Source: an uncultured archaeon (GTDB lineage Archaea; Asgardarchaeota; Lokiarchaeia; Sigyniarchaeales; SOKP01). From it: 64,000 nucleotides of DNA. Shown one piece after another: positions 21,432 to 58,433 of the stretch (position 1 is its first letter; each line of letters begins with the position of its first letter). Location: NCBI GenBank assembly GCA_964493715.1, contig CAZBPC010000002.1, positions 4,814-68,813 on the forward strand, read 5' to 3'. The translations under genes were made by a program, and so were the position numbers. Below the pieces are notes generated by a model. The model searched no databases. It was not told the DNA's origin and saw only the letters and a list, made by a program, of their open reading frames with translations.

Positions 21432-21602
21432 AGAACTTCACGTGAAAATGATTACAATAATGATATATAAACCAAAACTAAAAAAATTTAGCTTTTTTAA
21501 TGAGAAATTAAAGTATACCATAAAATTTTTTAGGAATGCTTAATTATGATAAGTACTCTTTTTGATTGAAATGATTAAAATTAAGGTGAGTGGACAATAG
21601 GC

Positions 21603-22703
21603 ATGGAACATAAGTCTCTATCAATAGAAGAAGATGAAAATTTGTTAATCAAGATCCTTGATGATGCAGATATGCGTTACATAATACTGTATATGTATAT
21701 AATTCGAAATGATTTGCTAAAGGATCTTAGTGATTCTAAAATGATAGAATCTTATGAACGTGTTTTAATCTTGGATGAAATATTTAAAAATAATATAATT
21801 GAATTTTGGGATGAAGAATTCATTGAAATAATGATAGATCTGGGTCTATTCAAAAATATAAGAAGTTTGGGAGAGTATAACAAATTAGAAGGAGATTTTA
21901 TCCTAAAGTTAGGAGAAGAAACCATTACAATTGAAAACAACACGATTTCTGTACCCGATGATATTCTCTTCTTAATTATTAAAAAAAAATTCAAATTTTT
22001 GAACAGAAGGAATTTCAATCTCGCACTTACGAGATTAAAAGGAGTCAGTTGTGAAAAAAGCAGTATTATTCATCCTTTTATTTATGAAATTGGAGATCAC
22101 GACTTTACTCTTTCTAATGATCTTTATTATATATTGGATCAATTTGGAAATGTATATCAATCAGTTAAAATTGAAATTACAATTGAAGGATTTTACCAAA
22201 GATTTGAAGAATTACTTGAAAAAGTCAATAATTTTATTGATATATTTGATCCCGTTTTAAATTCTAAACCAGGAATGAAAAGGATTGATGAGGCTCTAGA
22301 ACAAAACAAAGAAGTCATATCATTTCTAAAAGATTCAAAAATTCAACTTTCAGATAAATTTAATTTAGAAAATGTTGAAAAGTCAGATGATACATATAAG
22401 AAGTGGTATACACAATTAACGATTTTACTAAATTCGAGGTATCAATTAAATAAGATTCAAGATAAACTGAATGAATTAAGAAGTTATTATTCAGGAAAAA
22501 AAAAAAAAAATAATTATCTTGAATTTATTGAAAAAATCTCGTTTAATGAAAATGGAATAGTTAATACTATTCAAAACACACTCATCAAATTAAGAAAAGA
22601 AATTGTTGAAATTAATACTCAAATTTCGGATTTTACAAAAAAAAAATTAAAATTATTAAATTTAGATTATGAAAGAATAATTGTTGAAAGCAAGAATGAA
22701 TAA
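21603..22703 (+). CDS. Operon gene 1: hypothetical protein with C-terminal coiled coil
   Basis: 366-aa ORF. AAGGTGAG lies upstream. Contains an A15 tract at 22496-22510. No recognisable motif. Confidence 0.5.
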   Translation: MEHKSLSIEEDENLLIKILDDADMRYIILYMYIIRNDLLKDLSDSKMIESYERVLILDEIFKNNIIEFWDEEFIEIMIDLGLFKNIRSLGEYNKLEGDFILKLGEETITIENNTISVPDDILFLIIKKKFKFLNRRNFNLALTRLKGVSCEKSSIIHPFIYEIGDHDFTLSNDLYYILDQFGNVYQSVKIEITIEGFYQRFEELLEKVNNFIDIFDPVLNSKPGMKRIDEALEQNKEVISFLKDSKIQLSDKFNLENVEKSDDTYKKWYTQLTILLNSRYQLNKIQDKLNELRSYYSGKKKKNNYLEFIEKISFNENGIVNTIQNTLIKLRKEIVEINTQISDFTKKKLKLLNLDYERIIVESKNE

Positions 22704-26147: not shown

Positions 26148-26180
26148 ATAATAATATACCGAAAAAAGAGATGAAAGAAA

Positions 26181-27290
26181 ATTTCTAAATTAAAAGATGA
26201 TCTTGAAAAGAAAGTAATATTTACGGATGACGTTATTAGAGAAAGACTTGGGAAATATGGTGTGGTATACTTTCCGGAAGATATTAAAGAATCCGTTGAT
26301 GATATATTAGGGAATGCAAAGATAAAAGAAATACTTGAAGATTTCTTCAAAGCTTTGAACAAGTATTATGATTTTGTGGAACAGTTAAAAAATACCAATT
26401 TAGCTCCAAATCTCACAGTACTTTTATATGGTCCTCCAGGAACAGGCAAAACCTCACTAACTAGAGGATTTGCAAAAAAATATGGCGTGCCAATATGTGT
26501 AGTTGAATCAGATCGCCTTGTTTCACCGTTATTAGGAGATACAATTAAAAACATAAGAAATGTGGTGGAGTTAGCTTCAGAAATTTCTAAAGAGAGAGGT
26601 GCTTTTGTTTTATTTTTTGATGAAATTGATGCTGTTGGTTCAGAACGATCCAACACACATGAAGTAGGAGAAATCAAAAGAGCTGTCATTTCGTTTTTAC
26701 AGGTAATTGATAGAGTAAATTATGAAGGTGTACCATTAGCAATATTCGGAGCCACAAATCACCAACATCAATTAGATTCAGCAATATGGAGGCGCTTTAC
26801 ATTTCATTTTAGATTTGATTTTCCGGATTATAATTTAAGAAAGAAGATAATTGAAGCTTTTTTAGATAAAATCAAACAAGCAAAAATAGGTGTTGATAAT
26901 CAAATTTTTTCTAATTTAAATGAGGAATATAATCGTATGCAAAAAATTGAAAAAGAAATTACAAATAAAATGGGGCAGAACGTCACTGAATTTGATGATA
27001 TAATATTATGGAATGAAATTTCCAAGAAAATTAAAGGAGAGGGGTTATTAAAATTGACTCACGGATATTCTGGATCTGATATCGAAAGAGGAACTAAAGT
27101 TGCATTATTAAAAGCGATTACTATCGAACTCCTAACTTACGATCTATTCTATGATTCCTTAAAGTTAGTTGGAGGTACAGCAATTCATGTCGAACGTCAA
27201 AATACTCTAGCAACTACGAGAGGATTCATATTAAAAGATGAAAGAAATGAGAAAAAATCTAATAGGGATAATAAACCTCCTGAAATTTAA
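26181..27290 (+). CDS. Operon gene 5: classical-clade AAA+ ATPase (start probably ATT at 26181; first GTG at 26262)
   Basis: Walker A LLYGPPGTGKT, Walker B FFDEIDAV, second region of homology GATNHQHQLDSAIWRRF, and YSGSDI near the C-terminus. No MIT or other N-domain. Confidence 0.8.
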   Translation: MSKLKDDLEKKVIFTDDVIRERLGKYGVVYFPEDIKESVDDILGNAKIKEILEDFFKALNKYYDFVEQLKNTNLAPNLTVLLYGPPGTGKTSLTRGFAKKYGVPICVVESDRLVSPLLGDTIKNIRNVVELASEISKERGAFVLFFDEIDAVGSERSNTHEVGEIKRAVISFLQVIDRVNYEGVPLAIFGATNHQHQLDSAIWRRFTFHFRFDFPDYNLRKKIIEAFLDKIKQAKIGVDNQIFSNLNEEYNRMQKIEKEITNKMGQNVTEFDDIILWNEISKKIKGEGLLKLTHGYSGSDIERGTKVALLKAITIELLTYDLFYDSLKLVGGTAIHVERQNTLATTRGFILKDERNEKKSNRDNKPPEI

Positions 27291-32734: not shown

Positions 32735-33670
32735 TTATATCGGGATATATGGATTCGATCCAACTGGGGCATATATACTAATCAAGGTTATAACTAATAA
32801 TACCGTTAAAGGTACTATGAGAGTGATATAAACTTTTTTGCTCCATTTCCAGATATTCTGACCATCTAAAATTCCAAAGGGGATCATGTTAAATAAACCA
32901 AGCATGAAATTAAATTGAGCTCCATATCCAATAAAATAATTCAAGGGATATAATACAGGGGGTATTATGTAAGAAATTAATAATAGAATAGAACCATAAA
33001 TCAAATTAACAAGGGGTCCAGCAGCTTTACATAATCCTGTTTTCCTACTTACTTTATCTAACCCTAAAACGACTACCGCTCCGGGTAAAGCCATTCGTCC
33101 CAATGATATTAACGTCATGAGCATCCCGTAAGTAAGCAATCTGAATTTTGTTTGCAAGCCAAAATGAAGTGCTACCTGCCGGTGACCAAATTCATGGAAG
33201 AGAAAAGCGGTCACGTAAAATGCTGAAAGCATGAACCAAGCCCAAATTAAACCATATGATACCACGTCAAAAAACGACACAAGTCCAATAATAAATATTA
33301 GAGTGCTTGCGATCAGAAAATGCACTAATTCCGATTTATGTGCTAATAGAATCCCTTTAAATTTTATCCCCGAATTCGGATCAAATGCATTATCAGGAAT
33401 TTGTTTTTCTTGTTTATACCACGTATATGTACCGTCAGTGGTTCCTCGAATTATAGAACTTCCTGATTCATTTTCAACCATAGATGATCGAATTGAGGAA
33501 GTGACTGATTGAGGGCTTGCTTGAAATATTTGAACAGTTGAAGATTCTTTAACTATATTACATTCATGGTCTATTGGATCTTTATGAAGAAAACAATAAT
33601 TCTGTCCACATTGAATACAATTATGTATTTCTGGAACAACTTCTCCGCAATGGTAACATATTGGTATTAT
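32735..33670 (-). CDS. AN1 zinc finger fused to a site-2 protease (M50) domain; N-terminal AN1 part lacks a canonical start codon
   Basis: HEFGH and NMIPFGILDG M50 motifs. The in-frame upstream 63 codons encode CYHC-x9-CIQC-x4-CFLH-x5-HEC (perfect AN1). The only candidate starts are ATA (33670/33667), 5-8 nt after GAGGT. Confidence 0.6.
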   Translation of the reverse strand: MIPICYHCGEVVPEIHNCIQCGQNYCFLHKDPIDHECNIVKESSTVQIFQASPQSVTSSIRSSMVENESGSSIIRGTTDGTYTWYKQEKQIPDNAFDPNSGIKFKGILLAHKSELVHFLIASTLIFIIGLVSFFDVVSYGLIWAWFMLSAFYVTAFLFHEFGHRQVALHFGLQTKFRLLTYGMLMTLISLGRMALPGAVVVLGLDKVSRKTGLCKAAGPLVNLIYGSILLLISYIIPPVLYPLNYFIGYGAQFNFMLGLFNMIPFGILDGQNIWKWSKKVYITLIVPLTVLLVITLISIYAPVGSNPYIPI

Positions 33671-34094
33671 GAAAAACCTCTTTATGATAATTTAATAAAA
33701 ATATAATATATATTATGATATATAATTTGATATATAAAATTCCATGCTTTTAATTGTCATCAAAATAGATTTATTAGGTCGTAGTTGGATAAATTAATTA
33801 TATTCAAAATTATTGATCTGGATAATAAGAAATTAATTATGAGTGATGAAGAAAATAAACCGACTTCTGAGGATATAAAAAAAGAACGAAAAAATTTAGA
33901 AGAGCTAGGAGTGACTAGCACATGGAATCTTTTATCTGATTTAGCAAAGAAAAAAAAAGATGATGATTAAAGATTCTTATCAAATCTTTTAAAATTCACA
34001 ATTGCTTTTTTGGATTCAAAAAATAAATTAAAGAAGAATAATTTTAGAAAATAATAAAAACATCAACATTTGGTCGATTAATACGGGGAAAAAC

Positions 34095-52011: not shown

Positions 52012-52633
52012 TTTTTTTACCCTTTTATAATTCTTTTACAATAATATATTTAAAATTCTTGTTTGTCCCGTGTTAAATTGGGATAACAAAAATTAAATGT
52101 TTACACACAACAATTTTTTTGTTATGATACAAATATTATGCTTTTGTATTTAAATCTTGTGATTTGAATTTGAAAATTGTGGCGATCTATATCCCATTGA
52201 TAGGCAGTTATCTATATTTATTTACTTTTTTGATAATTTTTATTTTTATAACAAAATAAATATAATCACATATGTTTTTATAAAAAATATAATTTTTAGT
52301 GTGCCATCCATACTAAAAAAATGATATATTATGTTAGTGATAATTTTCATAGGACCATAGGGCCTTCTATTCCACACGAAAAAAAATTCTATTTTAATTG
52401 TGGGTTAAGAAGAAAAAAAGATACTAGAAAATAAAAAAACTTGACTTAAAAGAGACTAGTCGATTTGTATTAAAAAAAATAAATTATCATTATAGGGAAA
52501 CGAAAAATTAATTATTACAACTCTAACGTAGGAGAAGAGATAAAAATAAATTTAAATAATTTATCTCTTATCATCTTTTTGAACAAAAAAAAAAAATGTG
52601 GTAAAAAACCTTTGTTCGAATGACTCTCTTATC

Positions 52634-52639
52634 AGGTGA
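52634..52639 (+). promoter_or_regulatory. Shine-Dalgarno AGGTGA, 7 nt upstream of a putative ATT start
   Basis: AGGTGA-aatttaa-ATT. The same arrangement recurs at 53786-53801. Confidence 0.5.
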
Positions 52640-52646
52640 AATTTAA

Positions 52647-53684
52647 ATTATAAAAAAGGCTCCAAATTCCAAAGAAGAAGCAAATGAGCCCGAAAAAGGG
52701 GATGAAAAAGAGCAAAAGGTTTCTGATAAATCTTCAGAATCAAAAGATGAGGATTCAAATGATGACAATCGTCCTCATTTCACAGAAGAACAAATAGAAA
52801 ATCTTGACTTGGAAAGTGAAATGCTAAAATTTTATATGCGTATGTATGAAGATGAGACTGATAGATATGCAATTTGGAGAAATACGATAACGGAGGGTTT
52901 TAAAAGATGGCTAAAAGGAGAAAAGATCTACATGCGCGACAAAGAAAGAATCTCGCTATACGTGTCTGAAGAAACGAAATTAGAATGGCAAGATTTTCTC
53001 AATCAAAATAAAGATGATTATAGTTCATTTTCAAAACTCATTCGAGAAAGTGTTAAAACATTCATCGAAGATTCACTTAGAAATAGTGATGATATTTCAA
53101 GAATTGATACTAATACAATTGCAAACATATCTCATGCATTGAAAGAACCTTTAACATCAATAAAAGGATATTCTCAACTCCTTCTTGAAAGCAAGGAATA
53201 TGAAGATAAACTCACTGATATCGTGAAAGATACTATCAAGAATATTTTTGATCAAAGTAATATCCTCGAAAACAAAATTAAAGACTTTTTGGATAATATA
53301 AAAGTCCAAGCTAATCATATTGATGTTCTTTTAATTGAAGATGATCTACCAACAATTCGATTAATAACTAAAATCATTGAAAGTAGGGGTTATGTATGCA
53401 AGGGAGTTATTAGCGGTTCAAAAGGATTAGAAGAATTAGGAAGAACTTCTCCAAAGGTAATCTTATTAGACATTATTTTGCCTGATCTTAGTGGATATGA
53501 TATATGTAAAACAATCAAGTCTGATAACGAATGGAATCAAATTCCCGTATATTTCTTAACAGCTATTTCTGGATCTGAAGTCAGAAAACACCTGAATGAA
53601 ACAAAAGCAGATGGTTATGTTCTCAAACCTTTCAATTTTTCTGATTTTGAAGTCATTTTTGATATTTTAAATGGTGAAGCCTAA
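52647..53684 (+). CDS. RHH - HisKA(DHp) - receiver domain protein, paralog A (putative ATT start)
   Basis: RHH-like RISLYVSEE...SKLIRESVKTFI. H-box ISHALKEPLTSIKGYSQLL. REC motifs (LLIEDD, LLDIILPD, LTA, LKPF). No HATPase domain. The frame is open from 52647 with no ATG/GTG/TTG before 52809. Confidence 0.7.
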   Translation: MIKKAPNSKEEANEPEKGDEKEQKVSDKSSESKDEDSNDDNRPHFTEEQIENLDLESEMLKFYMRMYEDETDRYAIWRNTITEGFKRWLKGEKIYMRDKERISLYVSEETKLEWQDFLNQNKDDYSSFSKLIRESVKTFIEDSLRNSDDISRIDTNTIANISHALKEPLTSIKGYSQLLLESKEYEDKLTDIVKDTIKNIFDQSNILENKIKDFLDNIKVQANHIDVLLIEDDLPTIRLITKIIESRGYVCKGVISGSKGLEELGRTSPKVILLDIILPDLSGYDICKTIKSDNEWNQIPVYFLTAISGSEVRKHLNETKADGYVLKPFNFSDFEVIFDILNGEA

Positions 53685-53785
53685 CTTAAAATTTTTGTAA
53701 AAAATTTTATATAAAAAGCACAAATTTGTTGTTATAACAAGATCTAATTTTTTGCACAATAACACAATTACTTTTAAACATTATT

Positions 53786-53791
53786 AGGTGA
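53786..53791 (+). promoter_or_regulatory. Shine-Dalgarno AGGTGA, 7 nt upstream of a putative ATT start
   Basis: AGGTGA-ttaggct-ATT. Paralogous to 52634-52649. Confidence 0.5.
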
Positions 53792-53798
53792 TTAGGCT

Positions 53799-54743
53799 AT
53801 TAAAAAAGGAGAGAAAGATGCTAAAGAGGAATTTTACGATTCTCCTCATTTGAGCGATGATGAGATTGAAAAATTAGATTTGAATAGCGATAAAGCGAAA
53901 GATTTAATGAGAAAGTATCAAAAATCTTTTGATAAATATGCAATTTGGAGAGATTCAATAACTGAAGGCTTTAAGAAATGGCTTAAAGGAGAAAAAATAT
54001 ATGATCGAGATAAAGAGCGAATTTCTCTTTATGTATCAGAAGAGATGAAAAATGATTGGCAAGATTTTATAAAAGAAAACAACTACACTATCTCAAAATT
54101 AATAAGAGAGAGCGTAGATTTCTTTATAAATAAAAAATTAAGAAGATTCAATGGAGATGTTCTTAAAACGGAGAGTCAAGCAATTTCTAACATATCACAT
54201 GCACTCAAAGAACCGTTAACTTCTATTAAAGGCTTTTCACAATTATTGATTGAAAATTATAAGGATGATTTAAATGAAGATGTTTTTAACACCATTCAAA
54301 ACATATTTGAACAATCTCAACTCTTAGAGAATAAAATCGTAAATATCCTTGATAATATCAAAACCGAAAAAACTCAATATGATATTTTGTTGATTGAAGA
54401 TGATCAAGCAACTATTCGACTCCTCACGAGTTATTTCGAGAGCAAGGGATTTAATTGCCAAGGTGTTGTTAGCGGTACTAAAGGGTTGGAAGAATTGAAT
54501 AACAATATTCCCAAAGTTATCTTATTGGATATAATTCTTCCCGATTACAGTGGGTATGAAATTTGTAAGATAATAAAATCCAATAACAAGCTAAAAGATA
54601 TAAAGATTTTTTTATTGACCGCCATCCCTGGTTATGAAGTAAAAAAACACATGGAAGAAACTAAAGCTGATGGGTACATCCTAAAACCCTTTGATTTCTC
54701 TGACTTCGAGATTCTTTTCGATTACCTCAAAAAGGATGAATAA
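53799..54743 (+). CDS. RHH - HisKA(DHp) - receiver domain protein, paralog B (putative ATT start)
   Basis: Same architecture as paralog A. Homology to A (SPHLSDDEIEKLDL vs RPHFTEEQIENLDL) extends upstream of both listed TTG starts. Confidence 0.7.
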   Translation: MKKGEKDAKEEFYDSPHLSDDEIEKLDLNSDKAKDLMRKYQKSFDKYAIWRDSITEGFKKWLKGEKIYDRDKERISLYVSEEMKNDWQDFIKENNYTISKLIRESVDFFINKKLRRFNGDVLKTESQAISNISHALKEPLTSIKGFSQLLIENYKDDLNEDVFNTIQNIFEQSQLLENKIVNILDNIKTEKTQYDILLIEDDQATIRLLTSYFESKGFNCQGVVSGTKGLEELNNNIPKVILLDIILPDYSGYEICKIIKSNNKLKDIKIFLLTAIPGYEVKKHMEETKADGYILKPFDFSDFEILFDYLKKDE

Positions 54744-54775: not shown

Positions 54776-54882
54776 TGGCGGGCTATGAGGGAATTTCGCA
54801 ATCATCCTATTCGGACGAATCTATCGAACCCCCGACCCCCCGGTTAAGAGCCGGATGCGCTACCTAGCTGCGCCAATAGCCC
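54776..54882 (-). tRNA. tRNA-Lys(CUU) with 30-nt intron in the T-loop (59/60) and encoded CCA
   Basis: Cloverleaf read by hand: acceptor GGGCUAU/AUAGCCC, D arm GCGC-AGCUAGGUA-GCGC, anticodon arm UCCGG-CUCUUAA-CCGGG, T stem GGGGG/CCCUC. Intron 54793-54822 with BHB UUCG[AU|A]...CGAA[AU|U]. Confidence 0.85.
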
Positions 54883-54920: not shown

Positions 54921-55021
54921 CGCAGACGGAGGGATTCGAACCCCCGAGCGCTCACGCGCACCGGTTTACTCGAATATGAAAACACTCAAGACCGGCGTCT
55001 TACCAACTAGGCTACGTCTGC
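54921..55021 (-). tRNA. tRNA-Ser(UGA) with 18-nt canonical 37/38 intron
   Basis: Acceptor GCAGACG/CGUCUGC, anticodon stem CCGGU/ACCGG, loop CUUGAG..A, long variable arm GCGC-GUGA-GCGC, T arm GGGGG-UUCGAAU-CCCUC. Intron 54967-54984 with BHB CUUG[AG|U]...CGAG[UA|A]. Confidence 0.85.
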
Positions 55022-57480: not shown

Positions 57481-58275
57481 CTAATGGCATAATTCTCTAA
57501 TTCTAGAAGGTCTAATCGCATTTAGTTTACAATTCCGTAAATATTTTCCTATATCAGCGATTATCCCAGGAGCTTCAGTATTATCTGAGAGAAGAACTAC
57601 GTTATCTATAAAATTGTGCCTATAAATGGAAACGATATCTCTTAGATGTCCCGTTTTTATCAAAGCTTTTTTTAATTGACCTTTTGTTTCTCCGCTAACA
57701 TAAACAGCCTCGAGATCTTCATCAAGAACTTTTTTAAAGAAATTTAAAGTTGGAATATCTAACTCACCTTGAGCATTTTGCTTTTCAAGATCTATTTTAT
57801 TAATTTTTACGTGAACAGGAAATTCATTTATGAAATCATATGCTTTAATAATTTCAGGTAAAGATTTTTCTTTAAAATTACATAATTGATCCCTAAGCGT
57901 ATGTAAAGAAATTAAAACATCCGTTTTAGGATTTAAGATCCCACAATCTACAAATAACCCAAATCCTACTTTTCCGACATCTACTAAATTTCCTTTCAAA
58001 CGCATTCCATTTTCTAAATTCTTGAATTCCTGGATCGTACCAATTTCTTTCTTTAACATGTTAACGATAAACACTTCCTCAGGACCTGATATCGTGATTT
58101 CCACTCGTTGGTCAAACTTTCTTACTTTATTGAAAATTATTTTTGTGTTAGGAAACCCTTGAGTTAATTCAAGGATGTATTTTTGATACCTTGAAACCAA
58201 ATCTTTTGAATTTTGATCATTTCTACTATTATAAAGTCTATCGAATAAAACAATCTGCTTTACGATTAAAATCAC
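57481..58275 (-). CDS. Hypothetical protein with S1/OB-like segment
   Basis: 264 aa. GMRLKGNLVDVGKVGFGLFVDCGI resembles an S1-type RNA-binding strand pattern. Confidence 0.3.
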   Translation of the reverse strand: MILIVKQIVLFDRLYNSRNDQNSKDLVSRYQKYILELTQGFPNTKIIFNKVRKFDQRVEITISGPEEVFIVNMLKKEIGTIQEFKNLENGMRLKGNLVDVGKVGFGLFVDCGILNPKTDVLISLHTLRDQLCNFKEKSLPEIIKAYDFINEFPVHVKINKIDLEKQNAQGELDIPTLNFFKKVLDEDLEAVYVSGETKGQLKKALIKTGHLRDIVSIYRHNFIDNVVLLSDNTEAPGIIADIGKYLRNCKLNAIRPSRIRELCH

Positions 58276-58433
58276 CAGAGGAAAAAATTAGTATGATATA
58301 ATTAATAATCTAAACGAAATAAAATACTTTCTCCTAAGCTCATTTTTCTCTTGTACATTCTATTCCAGTAAATTTAAATTACTTTTCTTTTATTGTAATG
58401 GATAGAAAAAAATATTAATGAGAAAGATTACCC

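Follow-up and report, generated by a model that had tools for sequence, protein, structure and literature searches.

Translation initiation at AUU behind a Shine-Dalgarno (SD) sequence is established in bacteria, with infC and pcnB of Escherichia coli as examples. Archaeal initiation combines eukaryote-type factors (aIF1, aIF1A and aIF2) with bacterial-type SD pairing. The start codons of archaea are regarded as AUG, GUG and UUG (PMC7531240), and these are referred to as canonical below. Here we describe two tandem paralogous genes, P1 and P2, in a 64,000-nucleotide stretch of DNA from an uncultured archaeon (contig CAZBPC010000002.1, positions 4,814 to 68,813; "the window" means this whole stretch). 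Neither gene has a canonical start where its reading frame opens, and translation probably begins at the first AUH (AUU, AUC or AUA; ATH in DNA) of each open frame, which is AUU at position 52647 for P1 and AUU at 53799 for P2. A third gene of the window, which encodes an AN1-type zinc finger joined to an M50 peptidase (AN1-M50), has AUA at the corresponding place.

The resemblance to infC and pcnB is that a near-cognate AUU stands behind an SD, would keep initiation low at a regulatory or dosage-sensitive gene and is missed by automated annotation. However, there are several differences. The genes described here are archaeal and would be served by eukaryote-type aIF1, aIF1A and aIF2 instead of IF3. 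AUU, AUC and AUA interchange, several unrelated genes are involved within one 64-kb window and nothing points to autoregulation through an initiation factor.

One precedent comes from another Asgard archaeon. The tubulin gene AtubA of Kariarchaeaceae was reported to have a "likely rare ATT start codon" with a ribosome-binding site at a plausible distance (PMC13394414), and this remark in a methods section is the only Asgard precedent for an ATT start that was found in the literature. As in P1 and P2, an upstream ATT restores a conserved N-terminus and the ribosome-binding site is plausibly placed. However, AtubA is a single gene from a different Asgard class and the remark is anecdotal, whereas the present case extends over three gene families and eight or more lineages, and adds tests of coding constraint and the explicit exclusion of rival explanations. 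Ribosome profiling of Haloferax volcanii also revealed near-cognate initiation sites in an archaeon, amounting to approximately 30% of the putative alternative sites (PMC7261190). Those sites are alternative or additional ones, were set aside as possible false positives and were not shown to depend on an SD, whereas the AUH codons of the window would be the sole conserved starts of ORFs that look essential. Finally, non-canonical starts verified by N-terminal proteomics have been reported for Deinococcus deserti (PMC2830850). The likeness is a lineage-specific and above-usual level of non-canonical initiation accompanied by mis-annotated N-termini. The difference is that D. deserti is a bacterium in which the phenomenon was demonstrated by proteomics, whereas the AUH cases here are known from sequence. 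What is new here is the conservation of AUH across lineages, the interchange of AUU, AUC and AUA, and the presence of three affected gene families in one window.

Start regions of P1 and P2

The G+C content of the window is 30% and the closest relatives of its genes are in metagenome-assembled genomes (MAGs) of Promethearchaeota/Lokiarchaeota. It is an Asgard fragment of a Promethearchaeota/Lokiarchaeia-like type. P1 and P2 lie downstream of a divergently transcribed TFB gene, and the order TFB, P1, P2 is kept in the orthologous loci. Their products are 61% identical. Both contain a HisKA phospho-acceptor domain and a receiver domain, with Pfam scores above the gathering score (HisKA, 43.6 bits in P1 and 37.6 bits in P2; Response_reg, 70.5 and 68.4 bits). 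These are preceded by a conserved region, YAIWR..ITEGFK.WLKGEKIY.RDKERISLYV. One source annotates a homolog as an "Arc/MetJ-type ribbon-helix-helix transcriptional regulator" in reference to its N-terminal region, and from that label P1 and P2 are probably regulators with a ribbon-helix-helix (RHH)-like part followed by HisKA and receiver domains. The features of the two genes are as follows.

52634..52639, forward strand: SD sequence AGGTGA of P1, followed by the spacer aatttaa (GGTG + 8 nt to ATT)
52644..52646, forward strand: in-frame TAA closing the P1 frame, the last three bases of the spacer aatttaa
52647..52649, forward strand: proposed AUU start of P1, first codon of the open frame, followed by ATA AAA AAG G
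52647..53684, forward strand: P1 coding sequence from the proposed start, 345 codons plus stop, with an acidic/Lys-rich N-terminal tail, RHH-like region, HisKA and receiver
52809..52811, forward strand: TTG picked by open reading frame (ORF) finders for P1, an internal Leu codon that is TTA in L002 and L006
53786..53791, forward strand: SD sequence AGGTGA of P2 (GGTG + 8 nt to ATT)
53793..53795, forward strand: in-frame TAG closing the P2 frame, one t after the SD and followed by GCT
53799..53801, forward strand: proposed AUU start of P2, with no other near-cognate codon from the stop to the conserved DSPH, followed by AAA AAA GG
53799..54743, forward strand: P2 coding sequence from the proposed start, 314 codons plus stop, with Pfam HisKA and Response_reg
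53850..53852, forward strand: TTG picked by ORF finders for P2, at the Leu/Met position of the conserved SP-H-[LM]-S-D-E-E-I

A preliminary description of this DNA had claimed that both frames open without a canonical start, that the similarity of the paralogs extends beyond the TTG codons chosen by the ORF finder, that those codons are not at equivalent positions and that both genes share AGGTGA + 7 nt + ATT + (A)AAAAAGG. All four observations hold. The first in-frame ATG, GTG or TTG of P1 is TTG 52809, 54 codons past ATT, and that of P2 is TTG 53850, 17 codons past ATT. The BLASTP alignment begins PHFTEEQIENLDL / PHLSDDEIEKLDL, upstream of the P1 TTG, and contains the P2 TTG as an internal Leu codon. 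The shared arrangement is read at 52634 and again at 53786.

Upstream of TTG 52809, P1 has a conserved motif, RPHFTEEQIENLD, and the called starts come after the family motif [ST]P-x-[LMF]-[ST]-[DE]-E-E-I. By our own arithmetic, the chance of an open stretch at the composition of the window is approximately 0.011 for 54 codons and 8e-5 for 114 codons. The length of such stretches was also considered as a genome-wide indicator, and was dropped because canonical starts are rare by chance in AT-rich DNA.

Further evidence comes from orthologs. Their DNA was obtained mostly by look-ups of exact proteins, plus two collection scans, and it comes from independent assemblies (JGI, ENA, NCBI MAGs and Logan); loci are designated by L numbers. 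For P1, eight diverged lineages were compared, and the upstream alignment contains nine orthologous regions from these eight. Each line below gives the SD, the spacer and the first two codons.

Window/L013/L014: AGGTGA, aatttaa, ATT ATA
L002-L005: AGGTGA, aacataa, ATT ATT
L006-L009: AGGTGA, aatataa, ATC ATA
L010: AGGTGA, aattaa, ATT ATT
L038: AGGTGA, atagtta, ATT ATA
L035/L036: AGGTGA, aacatag, ATA AAA
L037: AGGTGA, gatact, ATC ATA
L028/L029: AGGTGA, atttgga, ATT ATA

The position reached by AGGTGA + 6-7 nt is ATT in five lineages, ATC in two and ATA in one. All eight have an in-frame stop 0-4 codons before ATH, and all eight are without ATG, GTG or TTG for 47-114 codons beyond it. AGGTGA together with the AT of ATH is the only contiguous invariant block of the upstream alignment, and its flanks vary. 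The expectation that ATT would be conserved in orthologs is borne out for the position and the SD, but the codon itself is ATC or ATA in three P1 lineages. The proposed start codon is better described as AUH than as AUU alone, and with that change the orthologous loci support the original proposal.

The 58-codon extension of P1 has a ratio of nonsynonymous to synonymous substitutions (dN/dS, NG86 method) of 0.19-0.47 at dS 0.22-0.57 in nine diverged pairs. The remainder of the gene has a dN/dS of 0.06-0.12 in all pairs. Every insertion or deletion (indel) inside the extension is in frame. One is a 12-nt insertion in L010, which also has a 1-nt deletion in the spacer between SD and ATT. Another is an in-frame tandem triplication of a unit of approximately 38 residues in the tail of L038 (MAG GCA_054386535.1, L038:1545-1886), which brings the stretch without a canonical start to 114 codons. 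The extension is evolving as coding sequence, to judge from this pattern, because dN/dS is 0.2-0.5 and the indels inside it keep the frame, with the 1-nt indel confined to the spacer. Distant orthologs of P1 (approximately 63-73% identity) begin with Met, or with Leu or Val from TTG or GTG, and have a comparable acidic/Lys-rich tail, for example MPDENKNPKEENSSES. Homologs of 332-349 aa also start with Met and have a comparable tail. The match between ATH and a canonical start position is only approximate in P1, being made through these Met-started tails of similar length.

P2 tells a similar story with more turnover. Its frame is closed by a second upstream stop, TAA 53775, six codons beyond the TAG, and there is no start between the two. 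Public gene calls contain the exact product that starts at TTG 53850. The conserved D-S-P-H motif lies upstream of that TTG. In homologs of 313-320 aa, the conserved SP-x-[LM] is preceded by 13-25 residues. ATT is kept in the lineages of L013, L015, L002, L010, L038 and L023, and it stands 5-8 nt past GGTG in all lineages without a canonical start. The window, L013 and L015 have AGGTGAttaggctATTAAAAAAGGAGAG in common. The corresponding sequences are aaGGGTGttaattATTAAAAAAGG in L002 and aAGGTGtttattATTACAAACGG in L010, in both of which the GTG of GGTG is in frame, and GGGGTGtttttATTATTAAAAAAGG in L038, which is without a canonical start for 44 codons. Loci L023-L027 (2425-2445) read AGGTG TAA AAA ATT CCT, in which GTG and TAA form a "start-stop" ahead of the ATT, and a homolog has its start at this place (M-Y-K-I-P). 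This clade is widespread, with the exact protein on 24 or more contigs.

Two P2 orthologs show what a canonical start looks like at this locus. Loci L006-L009 have lost GGTG (AGGGTA), and a 1-nt insertion puts an ATG behind GGAGAG in frame, upstream of the gene called at L006:3001. The equivalent ATG of the window (53818) is out of frame. L039 reads AGGTGtcgagcATG GTG AAA, with AGGTG + 6 nt + ATG. GGTG is probably the ribosome-binding site of P2, because L039 has it 6 nt before ATG. One further idea was that the mini-ORF from the out-of-frame ATG 53818 is coupled to TTG 53850 by a TTGA overlap. It was rejected on L015, which is without that ATG and has kept the rest.

A protease gene with AUA and the proposed mode of initiation

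Are P1 and P2 alone? The long open frames of the window were scanned for codons that precede the first canonical start. One frame that emerged is that of AN1-M50 (32735-33691, reverse strand), in which 70 codons before the first canonical start encode an AN1-type zinc finger.

32735..33667, reverse strand: AN1-M50 coding sequence from the proposed ATA, with Pfam zf-AN1 (residues 13-45 of the open frame) and Peptidase_M50
33665..33667, reverse strand: proposed AUA start, in ATA CCA ATA TGT TAC CAT TGC
33676..33681, reverse strand: SD-like AGAGGT, 8 nt upstream of ATA

Approximately 118 of the 120 homologs listed begin M-P-x-C-Y-H-C-G or a close variant, and the window has ATA at the position of that Met. 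The same ATA CCA is present in two further sets of loci, L030 and L031-L033, which are without a canonical start for 74 and 122 codons, respectively. AGAGGT or AAAGGT stands 8 nt upstream of ATA in the AN1-M50 loci. All eight zinc ligands are kept in three lineages, and the region before the canonical start has a dN/dS of 0.38-0.59. L041, a canonical ortholog, has AAGGT + 7 nt + ATG CCA. Aligned in this way, the window gene reads as a direct replacement of ATG by ATA with the putative ribosome-binding site retained. Altogether, the lack of a canonical start extends from the three genes of the window to orthologs in 8 lineages for P1, 4 for P2 and 3 for AN1-M50.

How do these sites compare with ordinary genes? 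Among the SD-led canonical genes of the window, ATG or TTG follows GGTG at a distance of 6, 7, 7 or 8 nt or, in the case of AGGT, 9 nt. The AUH genes fall within this range, with GGTG + 8 in P1 and P2 and AGGT + 8 in AN1-M50. All three AUH genes have an SD-like tetramer 4-11 nt upstream (Fisher p = 0.011), whereas the frequency is 9-11 of 56 among canonical genes and 5.7% among random positions. The fold z-scores of the two initiation regions of P1 and P2 are 0.11 and -0.20, and by this prediction both regions are unstructured. Folding revealed no RNA structure in the leaders of P1 and P2, and the only Rfam matches are tRNAs. Conserved TATA-like elements lie approximately 80-90 nt upstream of both starts, whereas leaderless initiation would lead one to expect approximately 25 nt. 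This distance would favour leaders, and the conserved SD would speak against leaderless initiation, as far as these elements can be recognized from sequence.

The proposed mechanism is as follows. AGGUGA, 7 nt upstream, would pair with the 3' end of 16S rRNA and so set the P site of the small subunit (30S) over AUU. We infer that initiator Met-tRNA would then pair with the first two bases, A and U, with the mismatch at the third position tolerated, and that the protein would start with Met at a low initiation rate. The strong SD and the unstructured, A-rich surroundings may offset the weak codon. A regulatory purpose is conceivable in that a weak start would keep these regulators at a low, possibly factor-sensitive, level of expression. 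The AN1-M50 protease gene would use the same mechanism with AUA at 33667 (reverse strand). The orthologous loci support AUH initiation as the only reading that would fit them all. In sister lineages the start position interchanges among AUU, AUC, AUA, AUG, GUG and UUG. The ATG of an ortholog faces AUH at the same place in two families, as ATG CCA versus the ATA CCA of the window in AN1-M50, and as SD + 6 nt + ATG in L039 versus SD + 6-8 nt + ATT in P2.

One consequence concerns gene calls. Gene finders limited to ATG, GTG and TTG truncate or miss such proteins, and the prediction that automated annotation would do so in this lineage was correct. P1 is called at 271-287 aa rather than 345, P2 at 296-297 rather than 314 and AN1-M50 at 196-245 rather than approximately 310. 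Truncated calls of 271-287 aa are found for every one of the closest database proteins of P1 (89-98% identity), and the two closest to AN1-M50 (88 and 96% identity) are likewise shortened in their calls, to 245 and 196 aa. The calls thereby drop the complete AN1 zinc finger along with a tail of 58 residues and a conserved motif. Systematic N-terminal errors are probably present in Asgard proteomes, from which conclusions on eukaryogenesis are drawn. If the AUH starts are real, having them conserved in the closest archaeal relatives of eukaryotes would provide a tractable system for studying what determines start-codon fidelity in a machinery that mixes eukaryote-type factors with SD pairing. 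It would also allow one to ask whether weak starts regulate genes, as with infC and eukaryotic near-cognate starts.

What if this Lokiarchaeia-like clade has a genome-wide relaxation of start-codon stringency? This extension is offered tentatively, and it is doubtful. A few percent of genes (3-4 of approximately 60 in the window) would start at AUU, AUC or AUA, always behind an SD. If so, start codons would switch without restraint between AUG, GUG, UUG and AUH from one sister lineage to the next. It would be a prokaryotic parallel to eukaryotic near-cognate initiation, and it might be tuned by the level of aIF1, serving low expression of regulators.

Alternative explanations

Several observations weigh against AUH initiation or reduce what can be drawn from the evidence for it. 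Archaeal aIF1 has been reported to discriminate against non-canonical start codons (PMC6237735). ATT, ATC and ATA are synonymous codons for Ile, and their interchange alone is no proof of start function. The pairing of AGGTGA was judged by the general archaeal anti-SD, for example from the SD GGAGGUGA of P. abyssi, rather than by the 16S rRNA of this lineage, and neither the window nor the compared loci contain a 16S rRNA gene. An excess of SD-N7-ATH over background had also been anticipated. AGGTGA-N7-ATH does occur 6 times in the window versus 1.9 expected, but 6 was reached in 2 of 100 shuffles. This count alone, approximately three times the expectation, is only weakly significant and is not the main evidence. 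The two sites at P1 and P2 have significance because both are at the opening of a long frame and because the arrangement is conserved in orthologs. Two further observations concern P2. The GTG of L002 and L010, in frame three codons upstream of ATT, could be the real start there. In addition, a slippery heptamer is in phase with the GTG, with no stop between them, in P2 of the window, P2 of L038 and P1 of L002, and only there. The elements involved in this and in a second alternative are as follows.

53788..53808, forward strand: GTG 53788-53790 within the SD of P2, and heptamer A_AAA_AAG 53802-53808 in phase with that GTG
52620..52646, forward strand: upstream ORF of 8 codons (ATG...TAA) that ends directly against the ATT of P1; not conserved

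The heptamer raises the possibility that P2 starts at GTG 53788 inside AGGTGA and reaches its frame by a dnaX-type -1 frameshift on A_AAA_AAG, or by transcriptional slippage on the A-run, to give V-I-R-L-L-K-K-G-E-K-D. The likeness to dnaX is that the heptamer is in phase with the upstream GTG and that an SD-like sequence, AGGTGA, ends 10 nt before it. This is the distance of the dnaX stimulator from its slippery heptamer. L002 and L010 would even do without a frameshift, since GTG is directly in frame in both (VLIIKKGEKD and VFIITNGEKD). However, unlike dnaX, P2 has no downstream hairpin (no stimulatory structure is predicted, given the fold z-scores above), and a GTG inside the SD has no SD of its own. 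The phase of the heptamer is not conserved, and lineages differ in how GTG is offset from the gene frame. Stops block the route in most P1 lineages, as the GTG frame stops before or at the A-run in 7 of 8; in the window, P1 reads GTG AAA TTT AAA TTA TAA. In P2 of L023, TAA comes directly after GTG, and in L039 AGGTG serves as the SD, 6 nt before ATG. This explanation is unlikely, although for P2 of the window it keeps a small share of the probability. There is also a slim chance that translation uses the downstream canonical starts (TTG 52809 or ATG 52821 in P1, TTG 53850 in P2), with the upstream stretch an untranslated remnant of the N-terminus. Public gene calls use these starts, the downstream ATG ("ESEM") is common to P1 of the window, L002 and L006, and position 53850 of P2 is TTG or ATG in all lineages. 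However, these internal TTG and ATG codons are without an SD, the P1 TTG is TTA in L002 and L006, and the Met of "ESEM" is Leu in L010. At 30% G+C, a remnant would not be expected to remain free of stops over 47-114 codons in eight lineages and to show the dN/dS and purely in-frame indels of the P1 extension, nor to retain RPHFTEEQIENLD and DSPH upstream of the supposed starts. In AN1-M50 it would leave a whole zinc finger untranslated with all of its ligands conserved.

Reinitiation is more tolerant of non-AUG codons, which makes the upstream ORF of P1 worth considering. Its translation from ATG 52620 to TAA 52646 could be followed by reinitiation at the adjacent AUU through termination-reinitiation coupling. 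The ORF is in frame and ends directly at the start codon (ATT or ATC) only in the lineages window/L013/L014 and L006-L007, and in L038 its stop is one codon (TTA) short. Elsewhere the arrangement falls apart. L010 has the ORF in another, overlapping frame, and L002, L035 and L037 have no ATG. The ORF is also without an SD, and P2 and AN1-M50 have no equivalent. This coupling is very unlikely, and it would still need AUU as the start codon. The same ATG 52620 is in the frame of P1 and separated from it only by TAA 52644, so that readthrough or recoding of the stop (TAA or TAG) could in principle connect the two. Such readthrough from ATG 52620 was ruled out, because the 1-nt deletion of L010 between ATG and ATT breaks the frame and L002 has no ATG. 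For P2 there is the further stop TAA 53775, with no start between the two stops, and across lineages the stops vary in identity (TAA, TAG or TGA) and position. Stop-codon readthrough as a whole has almost no probability. Could the genes simply be decaying, or misassembled? Turnover in the start region of P2, where there is a 2-nt difference after GTG and a 1-nt insertion making a new ATG in L006, might be taken to suggest so. However, the gene bodies have a dN/dS of 0.04-0.12, the synteny of TFB, P1 and P2 is conserved, and the architecture recurs, with natural variation, in the independent assemblies. Pseudogenes or assembly errors are highly improbable.

Other sites in the window

A fourth, weaker candidate for an AUH start is the gene for an AAA ATPase.

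26175..27290, forward strand: AAA ATPase gene, with candidate starts ATT 26181-26183 or the out-of-frame ATG 26171-26173

The conserved TDDxIxExLxKYG is upstream of its first canonical start, a GTG at codon 30. The ATG at 26171 is shifted by one base from the frame, and together with the frame-closing TGA it forms the overlap ATGA. No SD-like motif was scored for the candidate start.

ATH also occurs near an SD at 21597, 39242 (reverse strand) and 58266 (reverse strand), with canonical starts close by. At 21584-21605, AGGTGA + 7 nt + ATA GGC ATG is found at the opening of a 373-codon frame, so that ATA has the SD spacing of P1 and P2 and ATG is 13 nt from the SD. The gene at 57481-58287 (reverse strand) is called at a GTG within GGTG, without an SD of its own, and ATC is 6 nt past GGTG (58266-58290). 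This ambiguity is like that of P2 in L002 and L010.

Two short motifs, (T)GTGGTAAAAA and CTAATTTTTTG(G), are present upstream of both P1 and P2 (52597-52607 and 53745-53755). They recur in distant clades, in the upstream regions of L023, L028, L035, L037, L038 and L039, and might represent a promoter element or an autoregulatory operator. Beyond P2, a 101-nt tRNA that probably bears an intron lies at 54921-55021 (reverse strand). It scores 45.9 bits with Rfam, was missed by ARAGORN and adjoins a tRNA-Lys(CTT) at 54796-54881.

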